64,000 nt of DNA from Candidatus Magasanikiibacteriota bacterium (GCA_016193335.1 JACPSK010000005.1:13308-77307); one strand, 5' to 3'. Counted from the stretch's first letter, positions 1-10,761 are shown. Translations and numbers: made by a program. Notes: a model not told the origin generated them from the sequence alone.

Positions 1-335
1 CTCGGAAATGGAAAAACGATCGTTTTTCCATTTCACTCGCCTACGTCGATAATAAATCAAAAACCCAAGCAAACTCGAATTGCTTGGGTATGTATTATTA
101 CATGGTAAGTTGAAGAGGGAGAGGATCCTCTCCCAAAGACCTTGGAGGGTCTGTATACGCCATACGGACAGAATGGAACGATTGTTCTATTTCTAGCTTT
201 TTTACCTCACCAAATAAAATAAGGCCATTAGCATTCTACCACGGTCACCCCACACGTCAATATGTTGACAAAGGCAATAAAAGATGTTATAGTTGTTTGT
301 TATTCGTTGATCTGTAGAACAGTAGCATCCGCGCT

Positions 336-953
336 CTAGAAGTACCCCACCCCTCCGGTAAACAACTTATACAAAAAGATGATAATCGGGCTGATAAGCT
401 GAAAGAAAAAGAAAATAAAAACCAACAATACAACAAAACCGTAACGTTCGAGAGATTCTTTTACATGCGAGAGAGAATCGGGCAATAAAGCATACAAAAG
501 TTTAGAGCCATCAAGAGGAGGAATCGGCACTAAATTGAAAACTCCCAAAAGCACGTTCGCGTACACAATAATAGATAGGAAAGAAGTAAGATTTGAAACA
601 GGCAAAAAACGAACCATGAGCCCAAATACTAATGCGAGCAAAAAATTTGACATGGGCCCTGCCAAAGCCACCCATACCGGCCCCCAACGCTGATCCCGCA
701 AATTGTAGGGATTAAAGGGCACCGGCTTGGCGTAAGCAAACAAAAAATTTCCCTGAGTAATAAGAAAGAGAATCAAGGGCATAAGCAAAGTCCCCCATTT
801 GTCTATATGAGCTCTCGGGTCAAGCGTGAGCCGCCCGGCATAGCGAGCAGTAGGGTCTCCCAAACGGTCTGCCATCCAGCCATGGCCGTATTCGTGCAAA
901 ATGGCCGAGGGTATTATAATCAAGAAAAAAAATAATAAAGGCAAAAATTCCAT
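336..953 (-). CDS. site-2 protease family zinc metalloprotease (peptidase M50)
   Basis: HExxH motif (LHEYGHGWMA) within a polytopic hydrophobic protein; this layout is typical of M50/S2P. Confidence 0.6.
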   Translation of the reverse strand: MEFLPLLFFFLIIIPSAILHEYGHGWMADRLGDPTARYAGRLTLDPRAHIDKWGTLLMPLILFLITQGNFLFAYAKPVPFNPYNLRDQRWGPVWVALAGPMSNFLLALVFGLMVRFLPVSNLTSFLSIIVYANVLLGVFNLVPIPPLDGSKLLYALLPDSLSHVKESLERYGFVVLLVFIFFFFQLISPIIIFLYKLFTGGVGYF

Positions 954-1123
954 ATAGAATCTCTTAAAAAAATAAGGCTTGACATCTCCTTTTATATAGT
1001 ATAGACTAATTGCACTATTATACGTTTTTAGGCTGAAAAGGTCAAAAGAGATATTCGAGAATAGAAGACTGATTCAGTCCAAAACCAAAATTATATAGTA
1101 CTCATAAGTTCTAAGCTTCACCT

Positions 1124-1288
1124 ATGTCAAAAGTCTGCGAACACTGCGGTAAAGGCTCACAAAAGTCTGCGACGAGAAGCCATTCCAAAATTAAAACACT
1201 GCGACGCCAATACGCCAATCTTCAAAAATTTGAAGGCAAAAAATATTGCACTCGCTGTATCAGAACCGCTTCAAAGCAAACCGCGTAA
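1124..1288 (+). CDS. rpmB: 50S ribosomal protein bL28 (54 aa; too short for the ORF track)
   Basis: MSKVCEHCGKG...SHSKIKTLRRQYANLQ...CTRC matches the bL28 N-terminal CxxCGK / SHS..TKRR..PNL pattern plus a zinc-ribbon Cys pair; followed by a GC hairpin and T-run. Confidence 0.5.
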   Translation: MSKVCEHCGKGSQKSATRSHSKIKTLRRQYANLQKFEGKKYCTRCIRTASKQTA

Positions 1289-1313
1289 AAAACTCCCCTA
1301 AAGGGGAGTTTTT
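1288..1313 (+). terminator. rho-independent terminator after rpmB
   Basis: aaaaactcccctaaaggggagttttt: GC stem followed by a T-run. Confidence 0.5.
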
Positions 1314-1339
1314 ATGTAAGAAAAAATGTTTATCCTAGC

Positions 1340-1443
1340 CTATACCTTTAGAACATATTCATTTTGAAGCTTCCGGAAGTCATCCCGCTCCGCTCTCGCA
1401 CTCGTCCTCCAGCTTCAAAATGAATATGTTCTAAAGGTATAGG
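1340..1443. repeat. perfect 32-bp inverted repeat around a 40-nt GC-rich loop, between convergent genes
   Basis: ctatacctttagaacatattcattttgaagct ... agcttcaaaatgaatatgttctaaaggtatag; the loop contains the 17-mer gctctcgcactcgtcct, which is also found at 20738. Confidence 0.5.
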
Positions 1444-1461
1444 CGTACGTTTATCCACATT

Positions 1462-2010
1462 CTATTTTTGGGATGTTTCCTGCCCCTCTCTGCCGTATAA
1501 ACCCAACAATTCTGCTCTTGCCAAAATCTGGCCCTGCATGGCTGCTTCTATGTCCTCTGCGCGGGCTTCGGCAGGGAGGTTCAGCTGTACATTGAGCGCG
1601 TATAATTTGAAAAAATAATGATGAACTCCTGAAGGAGGGCAGGGACCGCCATAACCGGGTTTGCCAAAACTGGTGATTCCTTCTCTCGCGTCTCCACTCG
1701 GGTTAAAAGATTCAGGGAACTCTGTAAGAGAAGGATCAATATCCCACATGGTCCAGTGCACCCAGGTCCTGCCCGGAGCGTCCGGATCATCCACAATCAA
1801 GACAAGCGATTTCGCGTCTTTCGGAACCTCGGAAATCTGCAAAGGCGGATTCAGATCCTCACCGTCACAAGTATATTTAGACGGGATCCTGTCTTCATTG
1901 GCAAAAGCAACGCTGGTGAGTTTCATAGGTTTTTCTTTTGATAAAATAAAACCGATATACCCAAAGATAAGCACAAAAAAAACTCCGACGAACACAAAAT
2001 TCTTTTTCAT
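1462..2010 (-). CDS. YbhB/YbcL family PEBP (Raf-kinase-inhibitor-like) protein, membrane-anchored
   Basis: DPDAPGRTWVHWTMWDIDP and GYGGPCPP...HHYFFKLYAL motifs are characteristic of bacterial PEBP. Confidence 0.7.
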   Translation of the reverse strand: MKKNFVFVGVFFVLIFGYIGFILSKEKPMKLTSVAFANEDRIPSKYTCDGEDLNPPLQISEVPKDAKSLVLIVDDPDAPGRTWVHWTMWDIDPSLTEFPESFNPSGDAREGITSFGKPGYGGPCPPSGVHHYFFKLYALNVQLNLPAEARAEDIEAAMQGQILARAELLGLYGREGQETSQK

Positions 2011-2016
2011 AGTCTT

Positions 2017-2949
2017 TTATTTATTTCTATGCAAGGCCCGTATATCGTGGGCATGCGGCGGCCTCATATATTCTCTATTTTCTATCATGGTCTTACAATC
2101 CTTGGAACAGGTATTTTCATATACAGTATTACACGGATCGCAGGAAATAAACAAGCGATTGCAAAATTTATTGGCGCAATTTCTGTATATGTCATTTGAA
2201 ACCTCGCAATGCAGGCAACGCCCGATAATCCGGGCGTCGGGAGACTTGTTTACCGGTATCATCATCCTTTCATCAAAGACAAAACATTTACCCTCGTAAA
2301 AACCCTCATCGCCGTATTTTTCCGCGTATTTCACAATCCCCCCTTCGAGCTGATACAGATTCTTGGGGTCAAAGCCCTGCGCGATAAAAAAAGCCGAAGC
2401 CGGCTCACAGCGTATGCCGCCGGTACAAAACATAACTATTTTTTTATCTTTGAAAAATTTATAAAATTCTATATGATCTTTGAGATCTCTAAAATATTTC
2501 ATGGGCGGACGAATGGAATTCACAAATCTCCCGATCTCCCATTCATAATCATTGCGCATATCCAAAAGAACCATGTCCTCGCCATTCTTCAGCCATTCGT
2601 GAAAGATATCTCTGTCTATATGTTTCCCTCTGCGATTCAGATCAAAAGATTCTCTTGTTTCTGTGGTGATGATTTCTTCTCTGACTTTTATTTTTAATTT
2701 GGGAAAAGGATGTATCTCCGAAAGGCTTTGCTTAAAATCCGTGTTCTTAAACAAACGATGTTGATTCATGTATTCTCTGTACAAACGAAGGCTTTCTTCA
2801 GAGCCGCTCAGAGTGGCGTTGATCCCATCATGCCCGAGGAGGATACGGCCAAGCAACTGCAATGCCTTGCAGACTTCTCTGTGCCGCTTAAGCTCTGATT
2901 TCGGATCTTGAATAAAGACTAATTTATAAAATAATAATACAGAATGCAT
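2017..2949 (-). CDS. trhO: rhodanese-domain tRNA uridine(34) hydroxylase (YceA/TrhO family)
   Basis: N-terminal UPF0176 region; rhodanese active-site loop CTGGIRCE; C-terminal Cys cluster. Confidence 0.65.
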   Translation of the reverse strand: MHSVLLFYKLVFIQDPKSELKRHREVCKALQLLGRILLGHDGINATLSGSEESLRLYREYMNQHRLFKNTDFKQSLSEIHPFPKLKIKVREEIITTETRESFDLNRRGKHIDRDIFHEWLKNGEDMVLLDMRNDYEWEIGRFVNSIRPPMKYFRDLKDHIEFYKFFKDKKIVMFCTGGIRCEPASAFFIAQGFDPKNLYQLEGGIVKYAEKYGDEGFYEGKCFVFDERMMIPVNKSPDARIIGRCLHCEVSNDIYRNCANKFCNRLFISCDPCNTVYENTCSKDCKTMIENREYMRPPHAHDIRALHRNK

Positions 2950-3018
2950 AAGGGAAGAAATATACTTAAAATGCTAGACTCTGGAAAATACTAGAATCTA
3001 GTCCCGCCTTTGGCGGGC

Positions 3019-3095
3019 TGGTCGGGCTAGGCAGACTCGAACTGCCGACCTCATGCACCCCATGCATGCGCGCTAGCCAACTGCGCTATAGCCCG
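3019..3095 (-). tRNA. tRNA-Pro (anticodon GGG)
   Basis: manual cloverleaf: acceptor CGGGCTA/TAGCCCG, D-arm GCGC..GCGC, anticodon stem CATGC/GCATG with loop ATGGGGT, T-arm GGCAG-TTCGAGT-CTGCC; the CCA end is encoded. Confidence 0.8.
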
Positions 3096-3108
3096 AAACT
3101 AATAAATT

Positions 3109-3182
3109 TGGTGGACTCACCGGGAGTCGAACCCGGGACTCGGCAATGCGAATGCCGCGTAATACCACTTTACTATGAGCCC
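3109..3182 (-). tRNA. tRNA-Ala (anticodon CGC)
   Basis: manual fold: acceptor GGGCTCA/TGAGTCC with the G3:U70 alanine identity pair, anticodon loop TTCGCAT, T-loop TTCGACT; the CCA end is encoded. Confidence 0.75.
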
Positions 3183-3185
3183 CTG

Positions 3186-3500
3186 AGAGTGGTGTGTCTT
3201 TACAGTTTGGCTAGAACCCATTTTATCCGAAACTCCTGAACGAAACCAGACCAAGGAAGCCAGCCCGCCGCCGCTCGCTACCACTCGCCACCCAGCAAAA
3301 AAGTTTTCTTCGCATTTCTGATTTTGCGCGCGCCGGATTTTTTCTTCTAAAAGGAAAAGAAAACTTTTTTGCTGGATTCTGCTCTCAACGAGCAGGGCGG
3401 CGGGCTTGGCCTCTATTTTTTGCAAGAACACGGCGGAATTCCCCCCACACCCCCCTTCCGCCGTGTTCTTGCGGGGACGGACGGAATTTTTGGCGGCGGC
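3186..3500. repeat. left ~310-bp inverted repeat (IR-A) of the accessory cassette; it contains three perfect 15-16 bp hairpins
   Basis: ~95% identical to the reverse complement of 8040-8336; internal palindromes agcaaaaaagttttc/gaaaacttttttgct, caagaacacggcggaa/ttccgccgtgttcttg and gcccgccgcc/ggcggcgggc. Confidence 0.8.
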
Positions 3501-4453
3501 TATTTTTCTAAATCTACCTCTTTGTCTCCAACTTTCAAATTTTTCTTTGCGATCCACACAAAACCCTTTTCCGGCGTAATGACGGCAACATCAATTGAAC
3601 CACCCACGCCGGGCATATCGCCTGGGTCGCCTGCGATACCATCAGAAAATCTTTGAATGGCCGTAGTTGTTCCAATTGCCAAGGTGCTAAAATCAATGCC
3701 GTCCTGCAAAGTCATGGTACCCCATTGGATGACGTATTCTAAACTCCTCAATTGTTTCTGAACTTCTTGCGCACCCATATCTGAAGCCATTTTTTGCATG
3801 GCCGGCAAATTGCCAATACGTCCATCAAAACCAAGAACGATTCTTGATACTACATCAATCTGACCTATCCAACTGGCACCATATTCTTGCCCTCGCTTTG
3901 CGCTATCTCTCTTGAGCTCAACATCGCCGGGAACATAAACCATCGCAACTTGATGCGATTCATCCTGATTGTAACCAGCAACAATGAACTGCAACTGTTC
4001 TACACCAGCGACGCCTTCTTTTTGGATTCCTTTCGGGTCTTTGAATTTGAACTTAATATGGCCCTTTTCTTCCTTGATCTCAATAATTTGACAGCCCTGT
4101 CGCTCCAAATCAGCTTTTATTTGATTAGGAAGAATTTTTAACTGCTCTTTATATTGATATTTTGTTTCAAAAAATTCTTGTAGCTTTTGAGCGGTTTCAA
4201 GCATTGTTAATTTTTCGGCTTCGATACTTTTCTTAAATTCTTCGATAAACCTGCTTATGTTTTTCAAGACGCCGTTTTCCGGCAAAAATGCCAGCCCCGC
4301 AACTATTAAACCCGCCCGATCATTTATCTTAAAAACCTTTGACGCAGAATCGGAGCCGATTCTGCTCATCCCTTTTTGATTTCGGTAGGACTGCCGACTA
4401 TCTGCGGCTAAAACGATTCCTTCCGGTGTAGTTGTGTTAATTCCAAGACTCAT
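3500..4453 (-). CDS. proteasome beta-subunit/HslV-like Ntn-hydrolase with a large coiled-coil insertion
   Basis: N-terminal TTTPEGIVLAADSRQS, KVFKINDRAGLIVAGLAFL and FIVAGYNQD..MVYVPGDV match the proteasome-beta/HslV signature blocks; ~80-aa charged helical insert; no adjacent AAA partner. Confidence 0.5.
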   Translation of the reverse strand: MSLGINTTTPEGIVLAADSRQSYRNQKGMSRIGSDSASKVFKINDRAGLIVAGLAFLPENGVLKNISRFIEEFKKSIEAEKLTMLETAQKLQEFFETKYQYKEQLKILPNQIKADLERQGCQIIEIKEEKGHIKFKFKDPKGIQKEGVAGVEQLQFIVAGYNQDESHQVAMVYVPGDVELKRDSAKRGQEYGASWIGQIDVVSRIVLGFDGRIGNLPAMQKMASDMGAQEVQKQLRSLEYVIQWGTMTLQDGIDFSTLAIGTTTAIQRFSDGIAGDPGDMPGVGGSIDVAVITPEKGFVWIAKKNLKVGDKEVDLEK

Positions 4454-5037
4454 AGTGTTATTTTTTTATTCAAAAATTTAATTATTACGGCTTCGACTGC
4501 CGTCCAGATAAGTGCGTTTGTTCCGTTTCCGATTATGCCGATGTTTGCCCAAGTTAGTCCGCCCAAGAGCAATGCCCAGCTAAAAATTGCTCCCGTTTCT
4601 TCATTCGCATATATTTTGGTTGCAATACTGGCTACGGTATTTCCTACGACGGTTCGTAAATCATTGGTTAAGTTTGTCCCGTCAGTTTTTATAGATTGTT
4701 CTCCGTGTCCCACATAATCCGGAGCGGGAGAGGTAACCACGCCACTGCTGGCGGGCGACATTCGTCGGTAGGAGTAATTAAACTCTTCCAGCTGTTGACG
4801 GCGGAAAAGCGGAATCCCAAGCAACTCAAATGCCTTATCAGTCAAGAGGATTGATCTGGTTTTTTGTCTCCCTTTCTCTAAAAATCCTTGTTTTGTAAGG
4901 GCGGAAATAATACCGCTTACAGATTTATGGTCAGAAACGTGAATGCCCACGACCATTTCCTGAAGCGTGGGTGAGGCACCGTACTTAACCCTGTAATCGG
5001 CTATAAACCGTATAAGATTTTCCTGATTCCTAGTCAT
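4450..5037 (-). CDS. LexA-type winged-helix DNA-binding domain fused to a glycine-rich hydrophobic C-terminal region; no S24 peptidase domain
   Basis: N-terminal ~70 aa (NLIRFIADYRVKYGASPTLQEMVVGI..ISALTKQGFLEKG) resembles the LexA DNA-binding domain; C-terminus GAIFSWALLLGGLTWANIGIIGNGTNALIW; 4-nt overlap with the downstream Ntn-hydrolase gene. Confidence 0.5.
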   Translation of the reverse strand: MTRNQENLIRFIADYRVKYGASPTLQEMVVGIHVSDHKSVSGIISALTKQGFLEKGRQKTRSILLTDKAFELLGIPLFRRQQLEEFNYSYRRMSPASSGVVTSPAPDYVGHGEQSIKTDGTNLTNDLRTVVGNTVASIATKIYANEETGAIFSWALLLGGLTWANIGIIGNGTNALIWTAVEAVIIKFLNKKITL

Positions 5038-5093
5038 ATTTCAATACTACTCCACAACCTTTGTGGAGTCAAGGCCTTTTCGTTGGGGATAAG

Positions 5094-5495
5094 TTATTTG
5101 AGCTCGGACTGAATAACTTTTAGTGCTTTGGTCATTCCTATTGTTAGTTCGTGCTCCCAAATTCTAAAAATTTTCCACCCCTGTTTCTTGTAGTGTCTAG
5201 TAACCTCATTATCCCTTTTCGCATTTCGCGCAATCTTCTGTGTCCAGTAGCTTTTGCGGACAGTCGGAATACGACAGTGCTTTTTACAGCCATGCCAAAA
5301 GCAAGAGTCAATAAAAATAACTGCTTCGTGCCCCTTCAAAACAATATCCGGCTTCCCAAAGTATTTGCCGGAATTTTTGCGATAGCGAAAACCGAGTTTC
5401 CAAAGTTCTTTACGAAATAATGTCTCAATCTTGCTGTCTTGGCTTTTTATCCGAGACATTATTTCGCTTCGCTTTTGTTTTGAAACAGTGTCCAT
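5094..5495 (-). CDS. vsr: very-short-patch-repair endonuclease Vsr
   Basis: MDTVSKQKRSEIMSRIKSQDSKIETLFR...FIDSCFWHGC motifs typical of Vsr; start taken at the internal Met to avoid overlapping the upstream gene. Confidence 0.75.
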   Translation of the reverse strand: MDTVSKQKRSEIMSRIKSQDSKIETLFRKELWKLGFRYRKNSGKYFGKPDIVLKGHEAVIFIDSCFWHGCKKHCRIPTVRKSYWTQKIARNAKRDNEVTRHYKKQGWKIFRIWEHELTIGMTKALKVIQSELK

Positions 5496-5502
5496 ACATG
5501 CG

Positions 5503-6570
5503 CTAGATTTGAATTTGCCAATCAGAAGGCATAACGATTTTGTCGTATTCACGCTTTGCCATAAATGGCGCGATTTCTTTGCTTGACGGAAATTCTGCGG
5601 CAAATTCTCGCCCAACATCTTGCAGTAACTTTGCGCCGAGATTAGCTCTATATTTTTTACTCAAACAAAGTTTGTACCAATCATCCAGATCGTTAACGGT
5701 AATGACGCCCTGTATTCGCTCGCTCCACCCGACTTGTTTGAGCAATGCCTCAATCGTTTCTCGCTCGGTATCAATGCAAACAATCACAATCCTGTCGGAA
5801 GTTATGTCGTCCGCGATGTCCTCCATAAGTTCCGGGGTAAGCGTAAGGTGTTTAACTTGAATTGCCGGGCCAAAGTTAGCCCAGATGTCCAAACCTCTGT
5901 CCGAGGCATTTGTTACGCCAACGCGATACAGCGCGGCAGGCGAAACAAGTCGGGTTTGTTTCGCGTCAATGCCGAGAACCATTTTTATAAATCGCTCAAA
6001 ATCCTTCAAAATTTCCTTATCTTTATTTCCAATCTCCAAAGTTACTTGCGCTTTCAACGCGCGGACGATTGTTGTAAAAAGGGCGTAAACCAAAATTTCA
6101 TACATTTTGTCCACGCTTCTGCGAAGTCCGGGCGTTGTTTGAAAAATAGCGACCAATTTTTTGAGATCAAAAGTGTCCGGCGTTGATTTTCTGATATAGT
6201 CCTCAACTTCTCGAACGGATGAGAGGCGCGCTTCCAACGCTTTGTAAATGTATGCCTCAACAACGCCCTTGCTTTTCTTGTTTATCTCGCCAAGTTTTGC
6301 AAGCAGTTCGGGCGGCATGGCGTTGGCTTCAAAAAGATGCCGCGTATTTATTTGCTTGTCGGTCGGGAAATAGCCAAAAAACTTTCTTGAAATCTCGTCG
6401 CTCCATTCTTTTGATTCTGACTCAAAATCATCGCGCTTGGATAAATCAAAATCACCGCCAGTTCTGTGATGATGTAAAGTTTCGGCTATTCGGATGAGTC
6501 GAAAAGAATAAACGCTTGATCTTTCGAACAAGTCACCAATTCTATTTTTTACTTCGAGTGCAGTTGTCAT
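5503..6570 (-). CDS. putative type II restriction endonuclease (355 aa)
   Basis: sits between a C5-methyltransferase fragment and vsr in an operon-like array; candidate PD-(D/E)xK residues GLDIW...AIQVKH; the size and the linked vsr resemble HpaII-type systems; I could not run a homology search. Confidence 0.35.
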   Translation of the reverse strand: MTTALEVKNRIGDLFERSSVYSFRLIRIAETLHHHRTGGDFDLSKRDDFESESKEWSDEISRKFFGYFPTDKQINTRHLFEANAMPPELLAKLGEINKKSKGVVEAYIYKALEARLSSVREVEDYIRKSTPDTFDLKKLVAIFQTTPGLRRSVDKMYEILVYALFTTIVRALKAQVTLEIGNKDKEILKDFERFIKMVLGIDAKQTRLVSPAALYRVGVTNASDRGLDIWANFGPAIQVKHLTLTPELMEDIADDITSDRIVIVCIDTERETIEALLKQVGWSERIQGVITVNDLDDWYKLCLSKKYRANLGAKLLQDVGREFAAEFPSSKEIAPFMAKREYDKIVMPSDWQIQI

Positions 6571-7316
6571 ACTTTTGTTGTCCAGTTTATTTGAACTGTC
6601 CTTTGCTCCACGCGATTAAAAATAAGTTTTCCGCCGAGAGGGTCTTGAAAAAATTCATGGAATGGATTTTCTCTAAAATTCTTAACGACGAACAAAAAAT
6701 ATCGGTTCTTCAACAACGAAGCGACAGAGTGCTCTTTGTTTGTCATCGCAATATTTCCGCTCGGTTCGTTCATTCCTTTTACTTCCACACCATAAAAAAT
6801 ACTTGGTGAAATAAGCCGAAAGTCAAAACCGCAACCGAGCTTGGTGGTGTCCTCAATTTCAAATCCTGCGAATAGATCAATTTCTTTGTATTTTGTTTTG
6901 AAATATTGCTCCGCCGCTTGTCCAGTTATGAGCCGTTTTGCAAAAGTTTGTTCCCCGACCCCTTCCTTTCTGGCAACCTCTTCCATCAAAACGTCAATAT
7001 CGTGTTCCTTGTAAACAATCTGCTTTAATAGTTTTGCAAACTCATCAAGCCGCAAACCATTGAACGTGTCGTAAATTGCTTTGCAATAATCGCGTATCGG
7101 GCGTTTGTGCCAACCCTTCCTGTTGTTTGGAAAAAGCGGATCAAATTCATCGCGATAATTTTTTACAGAAGCTGGCTGAACCCCTAATGCAAGCCCGATA
7201 ACATTAAACGCTTCCGCAAAATTATCGAAGTCAAGGTAACGCAAACCTTCTGTGTCAAACTTGGAAAGATACAACCCCGCGAGTATTGATTTTTCGCGCA
7301 AAGATAGTTTTTTCAT
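6567..7316 (-). CDS. DUF3883-like PD-(D/E)xK nuclease-fold protein
   Basis: GQAAEQYFKTKYKE...GFEIED...CGFDFRLIS...YGVEVKG matches the DUF3883 restriction-endonuclease-like pattern (E...D...ExK); starts with an ATGA overlap on the methyltransferase fragment stop. Confidence 0.45.
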   Translation of the reverse strand: MKKLSLREKSILAGLYLSKFDTEGLRYLDFDNFAEAFNVIGLALGVQPASVKNYRDEFDPLFPNNRKGWHKRPIRDYCKAIYDTFNGLRLDEFAKLLKQIVYKEHDIDVLMEEVARKEGVGEQTFAKRLITGQAAEQYFKTKYKEIDLFAGFEIEDTTKLGCGFDFRLISPSIFYGVEVKGMNEPSGNIAMTNKEHSVASLLKNRYFLFVVKNFRENPFHEFFQDPLGGKLIFNRVEQRTVQINWTTKV

Positions 7317-7675
7317 ACATTCTCCAACAAAAACGCTTTTGGCTGTTTCGCTCTCAAAATTCGTTCAACATCAAAAAATAAAGTTCCTCGCGTATCTGCA
7401 AAACCACGCCCGTTGCCGATAATACTAAACGCTTGGCACGGAAATCCTCCCGTCAAAATTTCGTGATCTGGCACTTCATCTGCAACGAGTTTTGTAATAT
7501 CGCCAAAAGGTTTTTCGCCAAAATTTGCTTCATACATGACTTGGCATGGCTCGTCCCATTCAGAAGTAAAAACGCATTCTCCTCCGGCGCGCTCAAAAGC
7601 TATGCGGATGCCGCCAATGCCCGCAAATAGGTCTATGAATTTGAATTTTTTACCATTTCCGTTTGCCATAGTCAT
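7313..7675 (-). CDS. DNA (cytosine-5)-methyltransferase N-terminal fragment (motifs I, IV and VI only, 120 aa)
   Basis: FIDLFAGIGG (motif I), GGFPCQAFS (motif IV) and ENV (motif VI), then a stop codon; the downstream ORF has no methyltransferase motifs VIII-X; this is either a decayed gene or a non-canonical short form. Confidence 0.6.
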   Translation of the reverse strand: MTMANGNGKKFKFIDLFAGIGGIRIAFERAGGECVFTSEWDEPCQVMYEANFGEKPFGDITKLVADEVPDHEILTGGFPCQAFSIIGNGRGFADTRGTLFFDVERILRAKQPKAFLLENV

Positions 7676-7884
7676 TTGATTAAATCATCAACCCTGACTT
7701 GCAGGGCATTGGCGACCTTCTTTAAAGTTTCGATTGTCGGATTATCTTGTTTGCCCGCCTCAATATTAACAACTGTGTTGTTTGAAACATCTGCAAGGCG
7801 CGCAAGTTTTTCCTGCGATATGCCCAGTTTTTCTCTCAGTTTCTTTACTGTTTTGCCTATATTGGTTTTACTTGACTCTGCCAT
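7672..7884 (-). CDS. XRE-family HTH protein, R-M controller (C-protein)-like
   Basis: 70 aa; LREKLGISQEKLARLADVSNNTVVNIEAG HTH; stop codon overlaps the methyltransferase start (ATGA). Confidence 0.65.
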   Translation of the reverse strand: MAESSKTNIGKTVKKLREKLGISQEKLARLADVSNNTVVNIEAGKQDNPTIETLKKVANALQVRVDDLIK

Positions 7885-8039
7885 AATAGATTAGTAACAT
7901 TAAATTGTAGTATACTTATTGAAAGCCCTAAACACAATATAATGTTACCAAAATATTTTGATTTAATCAAAGGGAGTTCCTTAACCTTTTCCGCGCACGG
8001 GTGGTGGGGCAAGGAAAAGTATTTAGTCGTCGCCAAAAA

Positions 8040-8336
8040 TCCCGTCCGTCCCCGCAAGAACACGGCGGAAGGGGGGTGTGGGGGGAATTCCGCCGTGTTC
8101 TTGCAAAAAATAGAGGCCAAGCCCGCCGCCTGCTATGTCGGGAGCAAAACCCAGCAAAAAAGTTTTCTTTTCCTTTTAGAAGAAAAAATTCGGCGCGCGC
8201 AAATCAGGAAAAGCGAAGAAAACTTTTTTGCTGGGTGGCGAGTGCCAGCGAGCGGCGGCGGGCTGGCTTCCTTGGTCTGGTTTCGGTCAAGAATTTCGGA
8301 TAAAATGAGTTCGAGCCAAACTGTAAAGACACACCA
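8040..8336. repeat. right ~310-bp inverted repeat (IR-B), an inverted copy of IR-A
   Basis: reverse complement aligns with 3186-3500 at roughly 95% identity, with the same three hairpins. Confidence 0.8.
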
Positions 8337-8466
8337 AAATCTGACTTTCGGAAAATTGACCGACTTTTTCGTTGGCGGCGCACAGCGCCGCCCATGCGTT
8401 TTGCCCCGACAAATCCTTCCCGCTCGGCGCGCGCAGGCGCGCCTCGCGGTTGGCCAAGACGAGGTT
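8333..8466. repeat. ~130-bp inverted repeat (IR-C) upstream of the recombinase; it copies the tRNA-Val 3' flank
   Basis: caccaaaatctgactttcggaaaattgaccgactttttcgttggcggcgcacagcgccgcc... is close to the reverse complement of 9922-10053, the sequence immediately 3' of tRNA-Val. Confidence 0.7.
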
Positions 8467-8525
8467 CGCCTCCCGTGCGATTTAGAAATTCTGTCTCGGA
8501 TTTGCTTTGCCCAATTAAAAAATAT

Positions 8526-10097
8526 ATGAGTATGAACAATAACAAATTCTTTTTATACGCCCGCAAGTCCACCGATGTTGAGGACAAGCAGGTTTTATCT
8601 ATTGAAGCGCAGATCACAGAATTGCGCGCCTTTGCCAAGCAAGAGGGTTTGCATATCGCCGAAGAATTTATTGAAAAACAATCCGCCAAAATTATCGGTC
8701 GTCCGATATTCAACAAAATGATTGAGCGTATTGAACGAGGCGAAGCAAACGCTATTCTTGCTTGGCATCCGGACAGATTGGCGCGCAATTCTGTGGACGG
8801 TGGAAAAATTATCTACCTGCTTGACGGTGGCGGACTTGCGGATCTCAAATTTCCACAATTTTGGTGTGAAAATACCTCGCAAGGAAAGTTCATGCTCAAT
8901 GTCGCCTTTGGGCAAAGCAAATATTATGTGGATTCGCTTGCCGAGAATACTAAACGAGGATTGCGCCAAAAAGTGAGGCGCGGAGAATATCCCTGTCTTG
9001 CGCCAATCGGATATATCAACGATGTGCGGACGAAAACGGTAATCGTGGACAAAAAGCGCGCCTCATTTATTCGCAAGGCGTTTGAGATGTATGCGAAAAA
9101 CAGTTCACGATTAGAAGACATCTCAAATTTTTTGGCGCAATCCGGCATCCATTCTCGAAACGGCAAGCGACTCCACCGAGACAGAATTACTTTTATCCTT
9201 TCCAATCCGTTCTACTATGGACATTTTCGCTATGGCGGCGAAGTTCACGAGGGCAAGCACCAGCCAGTCGTCTCAAAGAAAATTTTTGACAAGGCGCAGG
9301 AAGTGTTGAAGCAAAGAGGCAGGCCTCACCACAAGCAGAAAAATGAACCGCAACCATTTTGCGGACTGCTTTCCTGCGCCTCATGCGGAATGATGATAAC
9401 TGGCGAATACAAGGTGAAGAAGCAAAAGAACGGCAATATTCACGAGTATGTCTATTACCACTGCACCAAGAAATCAAAACTCAAATGTCCCGAACCTTGT
9501 ATTCGCCAAGAGGAACTGGATCGCCAGTTATCATCTCTATTACAAAAATTTTCTTTGAGACAGGATTGGGCGGAAGAAATGCGCGAGATGTTAGAAAAAG
9601 AAAAATCAGAATCCGCCCAATCCTCAACCGCTTTTGTTCAGGAAGCCGGAGACAAAATCCGTGCCATTCAAACGAAACTCCAGCGACTTCTTGAGGGATA
9701 TTTAGAGCAGGATATTGAGCGCGAAATATACCGAACCGAAAAAGCAAAACTACTTTCCGAAAAGAAGTCGCTGGAAGAACAAATGGCCCGGATTGAACAA
9801 AAGCGGACTGGCTGGCTCGAACCTATGGCGGAATGGATAAAAGAGGCAGAAAATCTGCCTAAAATCGCACAGGAAAGTAACCTTTTTGCGAAAAAGGTTA
9901 CTGCCAAAGAAATCTTTGACTCGAACCTCGTCTTGGCCAACCGCGAGGCGCGCCTGCGCGCGCCGAGCGGAGAGGATTTGTCGGGGGGAAATGCTTGGGC
10001 GGCGCTTTGCGCCGCCAACGAAAAAGTCGGTCAATTTTCTGAAAGTCAGATTCTGGTGGGCAACACAGGAATCGAACCTGTGACCTCTGCAATGTGA
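8526..10097 (+). CDS. large serine recombinase (resolvase/invertase N-domain, recombinase domain and zinc ribbon)
   Basis: YARKSTDVEDKQVLSIEAQ catalytic-Ser region; CGLLSCASCG...HEYVYYHC zinc ribbon; coiled-coil C-terminus; the last ~57 codons run through IR-D into the tRNA-Val gene. Confidence 0.8.
   Translation: MSMNNNKFFLYARKSTDVEDKQVLSIEAQITELRAFAKQEGLHIAEEFIEKQSAKIIGRPIFNKMIERIERGEANAILAWHPDRLARNSVDGGKIIYLLDGGGLADLKFPQFWCENTSQGKFMLNVAFGQSKYYVDSLAENTKRGLRQKVRRGEYPCLAPIGYINDVRTKTVIVDKKRASFIRKAFEMYAKNSSRLEDISNFLAQSGIHSRNGKRLHRDRITFILSNPFYYGHFRYGGEVHEGKHQPVVSKKIFDKAQEVLKQRGRPHHKQKNEPQPFCGLLSCASCGMMITGEYKVKKQKNGNIHEYVYYHCTKKSKLKCPEPCIRQEELDRQLSSLLQKFSLRQDWAEEMREMLEKEKSESAQSSTAFVQEAGDKIRAIQTKLQRLLEGYLEQDIEREIYRTEKAKLLSEKKSLEEQMARIEQKRTGWLEPMAEWIKEAENLPKIAQESNLFAKKVTAKEIFDSNLVLANREARLRAPSGEDLSGGNAWAALCAANEKVGQFSESQILVGNTGIEPVTSAM
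9922..10053. repeat. ~130-bp inverted repeat (IR-D) between the recombinase 3' end and tRNA-Val
   Basis: reverse complement matches 8333-8466 and includes the ggcggcgc-aaa-gcgccgcc hairpin. Confidence 0.7.
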
Positions 10098-10130
10098 ATG
10101 CAGCGCTCTAACCAGCTGAGCTAGTTGCCC
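10054..10130 (-). tRNA. tRNA-Val (anticodon CAC)
   Basis: manual fold: acceptor GGGCAAC/GTTGCCC, D-arm GCTC-AGCTGGTTA-GAGC, anticodon loop TTCACAT, T-arm ACAGG-TTCGATT-CCTGT; the CCA end is encoded. Confidence 0.8.
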
Positions 10131-10204
10131 ATTTACCAATCAGAAGTTTCTGAATTTTTCTGTTTACATCCCTCGCTTTTTGATAGGCGATAAGTTTTTC
10201 AAAA

Positions 10205-10276
10205 TCAAACATAGTTTCAAAATACTAGGCTCTAGAATCTAGTTACTAGACTCTAGACTCTAGTAACTAGATTCTA
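10205..10276. repeat. CTAG-rich perfect palindrome (~46 bp) 3' of tRNA-Pro(CGG)
   Basis: ctagaatctagttactagactctag|actctagtaactagattctag; a shorter relative occurs at 2962-2998, 3' of tRNA-Pro(GGG). Confidence 0.5.
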
Positions 10277-10294
10277 GTCCCGCCTTCGGCGGGC

Positions 10295-10371
10295 TGGTCG
10301 GGCTAGGCAGACTCGAACTGCCGACCTCGTCGTCCCGAACGACGCGCGCTAGCCAACTGCGCTATAGCCCG
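10295..10371 (-). tRNA. tRNA-Pro (anticodon CGG)
   Basis: body identical to tRNA-Pro(GGG) except for the anticodon arm CGTCG-TTCGGGA-CGACG; followed by the same gcccgcc-hairpin terminator. Confidence 0.8.
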
Positions 10372-10761
10372 ATTTGCGAGATGATACTACAGAATTTTAC
10401 ACTCTTTTGCAAGAGAAAACAAAAAACCCCTTTTAAAGGGTCTTTTATGATCCCACCATTGGGTAACAATATCGTACATCCCTATGTACTAGGTGGGTCA
10501 CCGCAATCTCGGCCCGCGAGCCGAAACAATATTGGCGTCCCTATGTTACGATATGTAGAATGAGATATGTCACCCTACAGCAAGGATCATGAGGAAGTAT
10601 AGAAACACTTGCAGATATTGTCAACGAAAAGTTAAGAACATTTTATCCACTTTTTTTCCAGATCCTCTGATTACTTAGCAATGAAAGAGAAATAATCAAA
10701 GGGAGTGAGAGATGCGAGAGGGGGAATTTTGGCTTCTCTCTATGGGGGGGGTTCAGGAGGC

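Follow-up and report, generated by a model that had tools for sequence, protein, structure and literature searches.

Modification-dependent nucleases have been described next to C5-cytosine methyltransferase genes in other systems. About half of the members of the MspJI family adjoin genes for 5-methylcytosine (m5C) methyltransferases, some of them also a vsr gene, and the authors of that study suggested that the methyltransferase is no longer needed and degenerates (Zheng et al. 2010, PMC2938202). DUF3883, in turn, serves as the catalytic domain in YenY4I, a modification-dependent enzyme, and in the McaZI-type DUF3427-DUF3883 fusions (PMC6765204). In this work, we analyzed a 64-kb stretch of DNA from a Candidatus Magasanikiibacteriota bacterium (GCA_016193335.1, JACPSK010000005.1:13308-77307; hereafter the window), in which a HaeII-type restriction-modification (RM) operon carries a gene for a 249-amino-acid DUF3883 nuclease in place of the C-terminal part of its methyltransferase gene. 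A modification-dependent nuclease beside a dying m5C methyltransferase gene and vsr is, as a general theme, clearly known from MspJI; a literature search found no description of the 249-amino-acid family or of the cassette replacement reported here, the MspJI paper (PMC2938202) being the nearest.

The operon occupies positions 7884-5094, with all five genes co-directional on the minus strand; its open reading frames (ORFs) were annotated with Pfam, TIGRFAM (TIGR00632) and PADLOC profile models. The first gene (7672..7884) encodes a 70-amino-acid controller (C) protein of the helix-turn-helix type (Pfam HTH_3, E 7e-18; PADLOC Control_protein, E 7e-11), and its stop overlaps the next start in an ATGA. 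The following 120-amino-acid ORF (7313..7675), here called the stump, is an M.HaeII-like C5-methyltransferase remnant matching positions 1-111 of the 324 positions of Pfam DNA_methylase (PF00145, E 1e-48); it keeps motifs I (FAGIGG), IV (GFPCQ) and VI (ENV) and stops directly after the latter (C-terminus ...FLLENV*), without motifs VII-X or a target-recognition domain. The 249-amino-acid two-domain nuclease is encoded at 6567..7316 (NOV_C/DUF3883, PF13020, E 7e-10 over residues 136-218), and a full-length, chimeric HaeII-family endonuclease of 355 amino acids at 5503..6570 (Pfam RE_HaeII, PF09554, positions 2-338 of 338, E 2e-105; PADLOC REase_II, E 1e-95). The last gene (5094..5495) encodes a Vsr very-short-patch mismatch endonuclease of about 133 amino acids (TIGR00632, E 4e-36; Pfam Vsr, E 7e-28), probably starting at the ATG at 5495. 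Vsr is the usual companion of m5C methyltransferases. ATGA overlaps occur at three junctions, those of controller and stump, stump and NOV_C gene, and NOV_C gene and HaeII gene. The initial annotation, made from the sequence alone, had described this five-gene arrangement, a methyltransferase that stops after motifs I, IV and VI, and an apparently intact endonuclease gene, all of which the profile matches bear out; its guess of an HpaII-type enzyme has to be replaced by RE_HaeII.

With a full-length endonuclease and with controller and Vsr in one transcription unit, the locus has the components of a HaeII-type RM operon except for the protective full-length cognate methyltransferase. The 120-amino-acid ORF falls short of a full C5 methyltransferase, which comprises ten motifs and a target-recognition domain, and, as motifs VII-X and this domain are missing, the stump cannot methylate DNA. 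No trace of these parts was detected in any frame of the whole 64 kb (phmmer --max, best E 1.9). As the initial annotation had proposed to check the other frames for residual methyltransferase motifs, this result also answers its concern that a full-length gene might be recoverable: a sequencing error or frameshift masking it can be excluded, because the 249-amino-acid ORF is a genuine conserved gene and no C-terminal methyltransferase signal is present. A split enzyme of the M.AquI type was likewise rejected, as no second ORF with a target-recognition domain and motifs IX-X occurs in the window or in the related contigs L088, L124 and L090. Nor does the window encode a second DNA methyltransferase: no Dcm was found, and a crude motif scan gave no (D/N/S)PP(Y/F/W/H) enzyme. 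Among known defence models, those of PADLOC matched only as generic RM systems and, for TmtA, in the NOV_C region, and PHROGs gave no match for the 249-amino-acid nuclease. The locus poses a paradox, an intact and selectively maintained HaeII-type endonuclease gene without its methyltransferase.

The origin of this arrangement became apparent by comparison with HaeII operons from metagenome contigs, which were scanned with the HaeII protein and yielded 68 loci, annotated by phmmer. The canonical arrangement, a full-length Dcm followed by HaeII and, in most cases, by Vsr, was found in 54 of the 68; their Dcm proteins have 328-404 amino acids, most of them about 340, with one 593-amino-acid ORF carrying an N-terminal extension. 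A controller homologue was detected upstream in about 20 of these 54 loci, and a second Dcm often follows Vsr. Five of the other loci start with the 3' part of a Dcm gene at the contig start, six are cut by the contig end and have no upstream sequence, and in three (L093, L094 and L124) a NOV_C gene stands in place of the full Dcm. The order of controller, methyltransferase, endonuclease and Vsr in the window is that of the 54 canonical loci, and so is much of its DNA. The controller gene is 96.7% identical to that of L102 and 92.8% identical to that of L095; stump codons 1-120 are 94.2% identical to the full-length (about 340-amino-acid) methyltransferase genes of L102 and L095, and this homology stops at 7317; the endonuclease gene is 93.2% identical to those of L102 and L095 from codon 78 to its end, and vsr about 85% identical to those of the canonical operons. 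Between these segments, across 7316-6339, no DNA similarity to the canonical operons was found (blastn against L095, L102 and L099). In canonical operons this interval holds the remaining 219 methyltransferase codons and their own endonuclease N-terminus.

Both edges of the foreign segment are sharp. The left break lies at the ENV codons, where the canonical sequence continues from TTGGARAATGT into GAAGCAACT and that of the window passes from TTGGAGAATGT into ATGAAAAAACT. The right break, placed by protein and DNA alignment, lies at the conserved LFEANAMPP stretch of the endonuclease, so that the cassette (6339..7316, minus strand) consists of the nuclease gene plus endonuclease codons 1-77. 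These 77 codons represent a divergent allele, with about 35-40% protein identity (estimated by eye from the alignment) and no DNA similarity to the canonical gene. In sum, window and canonical operons (L095, L102, L099 and others) share gene order, controller, methyltransferase N-terminus, endonuclease body and Vsr at 85-97% DNA identity, and differ in that the methyltransferase C-terminus of the window is replaced by the nuclease gene and its endonuclease N-terminus is divergent. These results establish that the locus is a canonical HaeII-type operon in which, by recombination, a cassette took the place of the stretch running from methyltransferase motif VI (ENV) through endonuclease codon 77, and that the 120-amino-acid ORF is a remnant. 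The view of the initial annotation that the clean 4-nucleotide overlaps speak against random decay is upheld.

The same segments tell different histories in different operons. For stump and endonuclease body, the window and L088 have their nearest relatives in the canonical clade L102/L097 (about 94%) and L094 in the canonical L106/L107 (90.5% and 91.8%), the identity of L094 to the window being only 84.7% and 86.2%. The nuclease gene of the window, in contrast, is 91.8% identical to that of L094 and 86.5% identical to that of L088. Synonymous divergence (dS) follows this pattern, with values of 0.24 for the stump and 0.93 for the nuclease between window and L088, and of 0.90 and 0.38 between window and L094. 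Since the nearest relatives differ by segment, cassette and flanks have had separate histories, and these sequence comparisons demonstrate that recombination has carried the cassette from one HaeII operon background to another. The variant N-terminus of the endonuclease accompanies the cassette and is absent at the DNA level from every canonical locus compared. The ratio of nonsynonymous to synonymous divergence (dN/dS) of endonuclease codons 1-77 is 0.07-0.24 in cassette-type operons and 0.007-0.07 in canonical ones, while that of the endonuclease body is equal in both groups. The nuclease gene is under strong purifying selection (dN/dS 0.03-0.065). An intact ENV-terminated stump ORF is present in at least five diverged operons (window, L088/L089, L090 and L094, with EN* in L091/L092).

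In the AlphaFold model of the 249-amino-acid protein (confidence score, pLDDT, 77) an all-helical N-domain (residues 1-130) is followed by a PD-(D/E)xK C-domain (about 136-249). In the latter, which matches PF13020, the residues D165, E178 and K180 of the D...ExK catalytic motif are invariant. The N-domain, which is not in Pfam, carries an invariant motif of its own (N53, Y54, R55, E57, F58, D59, P60, then R66, G68, W69, R72 and R75, in the context KNYRDEFDPLFPNxRKGWHKRP). An exhaustive, profile-free search with the N-domain only returned 516 cluster representatives. In one of them, the 883-amino-acid protein P0450, it heads an McrB/LlaJI-type AAA_5 module, and McrB-type proteins carry their DNA-recognition domain at this N-terminal position; it also forms the C-terminal half of proteins of about 240 amino acids without a nuclease, and is duplicated in P0384. 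The domain is a free-moving module with the motif KN(Y/M)RDEFDP(L/Y)F.N.R.GW(H/Y)QR (P0450, P0457, P0463, P0473, P0384, P0446). The two-domain model and the independent occurrence of the N-domain point to a separate, putatively reader-type domain fused to the nuclease domain.

The 249-amino-acid family comprises at least 2,310 database clusters (at 90% identity), 65-96% identical over the full length. A genome scan with the nuclease found 306 loci, of which 80 were retained; these belong to Acidobacteriota, Pseudomonadota, Nitrospirota, Planctomycetota, Verrucomicrobiota, Bacteroidota, many Patescibacteria and one Nanoarchaeota metagenome-assembled genome (MAG), and across phyla the nuclease is 50-96% identical. 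Phages gave no nuclease match and plasmids two distant matches only. The family is linked to dcm genes well beyond HaeII operons: in 38 of the 80 genome loci the ORF of a Dcm N-terminal fragment ends directly upstream on the same strand, and Vsr is encoded somewhere in the locus in 36. These stumps belong to at least four recognisable methyltransferase subfamilies. Their alignments to the matching methyltransferase query begin at residues 1-13 in 37 of the 38 (the other, L023, is split by a frameshift) and stop at widely differing points between about residue 23 and about residue 298; L124 of the HaeII loci is cut just after motif IV. The linked methyltransferase is clearly truncated in 36 of the 38, and its C-terminal half was never found downstream of the nuclease gene in the loci examined. 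In L045 stump and nuclease are fused in frame; the ORF upstream encodes a truncated Vsr in several loci (L017, L071, L083 and others), and in some a stump is lacking altogether. Given the several subfamilies, the varied cut points and the loci without a stump, we regard the stumps as remnants and not as partners. Upstream of the nuclease gene no leader, promoter, ribosome-binding site or transposon-like end is conserved, and even the DNA immediately before the ATG is unrelated between lineages. HaeII follows the nuclease gene in several phyla, frameshifted in L007, truncated in L028, L054 and L079, and intact in L030.

Some further arrangements were observed among these loci. In L001-L003 a gene at 4081-4992 encodes a 303-amino-acid protein in which a complete Vsr is fused to an N-terminal fragment of Dcm that ends about 20 residues past ENV; the NOV_C gene follows 8 nucleotides later, with an IS200-type Y1 transposase and a DUF4928 protein downstream. 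In L007 (Nitrospirales) and L030 (another MAG) a NOV_C-HaeII pair without a stump begins about 30 nucleotides after a sequence resembling the 3' end of a tRNA or tmRNA (GGTTCGAATCCCACCCTCTCCGCCA), which suggests that the pair arrived on a tRNA-targeted island. In other phyla, loci in the range L008-L087 have an ORF of 60-120 amino acids 3' of the nuclease gene, at -19 to +4 nucleotides, and one of the families concerned is rich in CxxC; such small ORFs might serve as accessory or immunity-like partners. No downstream gene qualifies as a conserved partner, as the small ORFs fall into at least six unrelated, lineage-specific families and none is present in the window. The short Dcm fragments of L170 and L171, considered as further cases, proved to be ordinary pseudogenes without a nuclease.

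A second, unrelated gene can occupy the slot of the NOV_C gene. This is seen in L091 and L092, where the same stump ends in LLEN*, with its break 2-3 nucleotides from the NOV_C junction, and is followed by a gene for a 237-amino-acid HNH protein, a cassette-type endonuclease gene and, in the case of L091, vsr (L092 breaks off within the endonuclease gene). The 237-amino-acid protein combines an N-domain of SRA fold with an HNH C-domain that has the HNH motif, its sequence match to Pfam SAD_SRA being weak (E 0.02). SRA-HNH is the architecture of 5-methylcytosine-dependent (type IV) restriction enzymes, and with these two domains the alternative occupant of the slot has type IV architecture. The HNH family is also found solitary, without a dcm remnant, in three other genomic contexts. 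A common N-terminal sensor in the HNH and NOV_C proteins was ruled out, as BLASTP found no similarity and the folds differ (SRA beta-barrel versus all-helical).

Taken together, these results lead us to propose, at a probability of roughly 0.5, that the 249-amino-acid protein belongs to the modification-dependent (type IV-like) restriction nucleases, probably requires 5-methylcytosine and cannot coexist with the linked methyltransferase. Its helical N-domain would read modified DNA, most likely 5-methylcytosine, and its DUF3883 PD-(D/E)xK domain would cut it, so that the nuclease would persist only where the linked methyltransferase is dead. The stump supplies the controller-regulated promoter and, via the ATGA overlap, probably translational coupling. 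Acquisition of the cassette would thereby switch the operon from methylating self and cutting unmethylated DNA to not methylating and cutting methylated DNA, for which neighbours with the canonical operon could provide the target. Incompatibility of the nuclease with a live methyltransferase would explain both why its gene stands directly after a truncated dcm across phyla and why the same slot can instead hold an SRA-HNH gene.

Several observations weigh against this proposal. The upstream methyltransferases of L063 and L070 lack only about 35 C-terminal residues, and in L034 and L036 an apparently intact C5 methyltransferase gene lies 0.4 kb downstream of the nuclease gene. The N-domain, in a model of moderate confidence, matches neither a known modification-sensing fold (SRA, EVE/PUA, DUF3427, winged helix, McrB-N) nor a solved structure. 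McrB-type N-domains, moreover, can also read unmodified sequence, as in LlaJI. The dN/dS of the stump (0.06-0.15) is only about twice the canonical value, which makes some residual function conceivable; as stumps are repeatedly refreshed from full-length genes, this value is nevertheless uninformative on function. Finally, an intact HaeII gene under the same selection as canonical ones is hard to reconcile with an unmethylated genome. The enzyme presumably recognizes RGCGCY, judging from its family membership, and the 64 kb contain 60 such sites against 64.6 expected, about one per kb, which gives no indication of chromosomal avoidance. The sites are unevenly placed, with none in 1-8383 and 60, about the expected density, in the other 55.6 kb; HaeII sites look purged from the operon's island and the flank to its left but not from the chromosome. 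Wherever the contig shows it, the endonuclease gene of the related cassette-type loci is intact, like that of the window. Possibly the variant N-terminus disarms the enzyme; possibly protection is encoded elsewhere, which would conflict with a broadly 5-methylcytosine-dependent nuclease; or such arrangements may be young and repeatedly regenerated from canonical operons. An inactive restriction enzyme and a protecting methyltransferase encoded elsewhere had also been offered by the initial annotation, and either may apply.

The mobility of the cassette also raises the question of whether it is a homing-like selfish element, whose nuclease, like the SRA-HNH protein of the sister operons, would cut intact dcm or M.HaeII genes near a conserved motif and whose gene would spread by repair from the cassette allele, with the variant endonuclease N-terminus disarming or altering the endonuclease so that the convert survives the loss of methylation. 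The movement between operon backgrounds, the lack of an own promoter or leader, the specific link of the family to dcm genes of several subfamilies and the presence of two unrelated nuclease genes within 2-3 nucleotides of one point, in the highly conserved ENV codons, are suggestive of such an element. Identical junctions are, however, expected from plain homologous exchange between operons as well and are no proof of site-specific cleavage; the target is replaced and not split, the methyltransferase C-terminal half never reappearing downstream, and truncation points vary widely between lineages. Furthermore, the solitary occurrences of the HNH family, without any dcm remnant, do not fit, and the combination of reader and nuclease, with an SRA fold in one case, points to recognition of a modified base and not of a long site. 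We consider homing unlikely on these grounds. It is tempting to speculate on a broader version, in which the 249-amino-acid family and the SRA-HNH gene are promoter-less, methyltransferase-replacing cassettes that actively attack m5C methyltransferase genes, cleaving them in a homing-like manner or killing every cell that continues to methylate, and spread through RM operons of many phyla including bacteria of the candidate phyla radiation and DPANN archaea; a single recombination would disarm the methyltransferase and the endonuclease N-terminus, and the reader would be a new fold for methylated cytosine. Such a scenario is conceivable but doubtful.

Two other explanations would leave the nuclease in a more conventional role. 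It might be a classical type II endonuclease, with the upstream Dcm as its former cognate methyltransferase, in a host that is protected by another methyltransferase or tolerates the nuclease otherwise. The order methyltransferase-nuclease-(Vsr) is indeed that of an RM system, and the nearly complete upstream Dcm of L063 and L070 would suit it. What makes this quite improbable is that a nuclease conserved across phyla adjoins stumps of unrelated subfamilies, which argues against co-evolution, that a truncated methyltransferase beside an intact nuclease (dN/dS about 0.05) is the opposite of RM decay, and that in the window the nuclease sits inside another RM operon, whose methyltransferase it replaces. 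Alternatively, the half-methyltransferase, with its AdoMet pocket and catalytic cysteine, could be a functional subunit or sensor working with the DUF3883 protein, as the initial annotation had suggested, or one part of an M.AquI-like split enzyme. Consistent with this are the intact stump ORF of the diverged operons with its low dN/dS and preserved motifs I, IV and VI, the in-frame fusion in L045 and the tight coupling by ATGA overlaps. Nevertheless, stumps of at least four subfamilies, with aligned lengths from about 23 to about 298 residues, one of them cut after motif IV (L124), and loci without any stump are difficult to accommodate in a partnership; the low dN/dS is explained by recent origin from full-length genes (94% identity to canonical), and no C-terminal half exists in the window or the related contigs. 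A partnership is in our view very improbable, and this suggestion of the initial annotation is not supported.

If the 249-amino-acid protein is a modification-dependent nuclease, as we favor, its family would be a strong contender for a new class of restriction enzymes that depend on methylcytosine, with a new reader fold. Modification-dependent enzymes such as those of the MspJI family are useful epigenetics reagents. The locus would, moreover, provide a nucleotide-level record of an RM operon turned methylation-restricting by one cassette exchange in a natural groundwater community, and a concrete case of conflict between epigenetic defence strategies.

The operon lies in a region with several signs of rearrangement. 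A 313-nucleotide inverted repeat (3190-3502 and 8024-8336, 92% complementary), each arm of which folds into long hairpins (z -5), brackets a 4.5-kb island containing the proteasome-like gene and the gene for the LexA-HTH membrane protein described below, and those for Vsr, HaeII, nuclease, stump and controller. Because the same repeat flanks the canonical operons of L095, L102 and L103, the RM operon seems to be carried by a module that is bounded by repeats and may be invertible or mobile. Next to the island, a large serine recombinase of the CcrB/XisF type (8394-10097, plus strand; Resolvase, Recombinase and Zn-ribbon domains) is bracketed by a 137-nucleotide inverted repeat (8332-8468 and 9922-10058) and stands between tRNA clusters at 3019-3182 and 10054-10371, with a tRNA-Pro region duplicated at 90% identity (2990-3096 versus 10266-10372). 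This region looks like an integration or inversion hotspot beside the RM island. Downstream of vsr lie two genes (3500-5037, minus strand) that L099 has conserved along with the operon (88.6% over 2.9 kb). One encodes a 195-amino-acid protein with a LexA-type winged-helix N-terminus and a C-terminus that appears membrane-like by eye from its hydrophobic sequence, the other a 317-amino-acid protein with a weak proteasome/Ntn-hydrolase match; they may constitute a further defence or addiction pair.

Among described systems, Tiamat was matched by profiles: TmtA is a large protein with an ATPase region and a C-terminal NOV_C domain, and the PADLOC TmtA matches of the 249-amino-acid protein (E 5e-8) span only the NOV_C region of profiles of 1,063-1,782 positions, so that it does not belong to this system. 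Free-standing homing genes (T4-like mobE/seg, or I-Ssp6803I as a PD-(D/E)xK example) resemble the cassette as small promoter-less nuclease genes at a conserved motif, with different nuclease families at one site and transfer between alleles; here, in contrast, the downstream half of the methyltransferase gene is deleted and insertion points vary, which sets the cassette apart from them. The SRA-HNH type IV enzymes (TagI, ScoA3IV/Sco5333, TbiR51I) share the combination of SRA fold and HNH with the occupant of L091/L092, which is shorter than TagI and absent from the window. Comparable to the 249-amino-acid protein are McaZI and YenY4I (PMC6765204), with a C-terminal catalytic DUF3883 behind an N-terminal modification-sensing domain and, in some cases, an adjoining C5 methyltransferase, although our protein is much smaller and has no DUF3427 or PUA domain. 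The MspJI family (PMC2938202) comes nearest in its genetic setting, as it likewise unites a reader with a PD-(D/E)xK nuclease in an RM-like context with a C5 methyltransferase gene and vsr. Whereas the reader of MspJI is SRA-like and its nuclease Mrr-like, the putative reader and the nuclease studied here are all-helical and DUF3883, respectively; the methyltransferase of the present operon is cleanly truncated at the nuclease start codon, and the nuclease gene behaves as a promoter-less cassette that recombines between operons.

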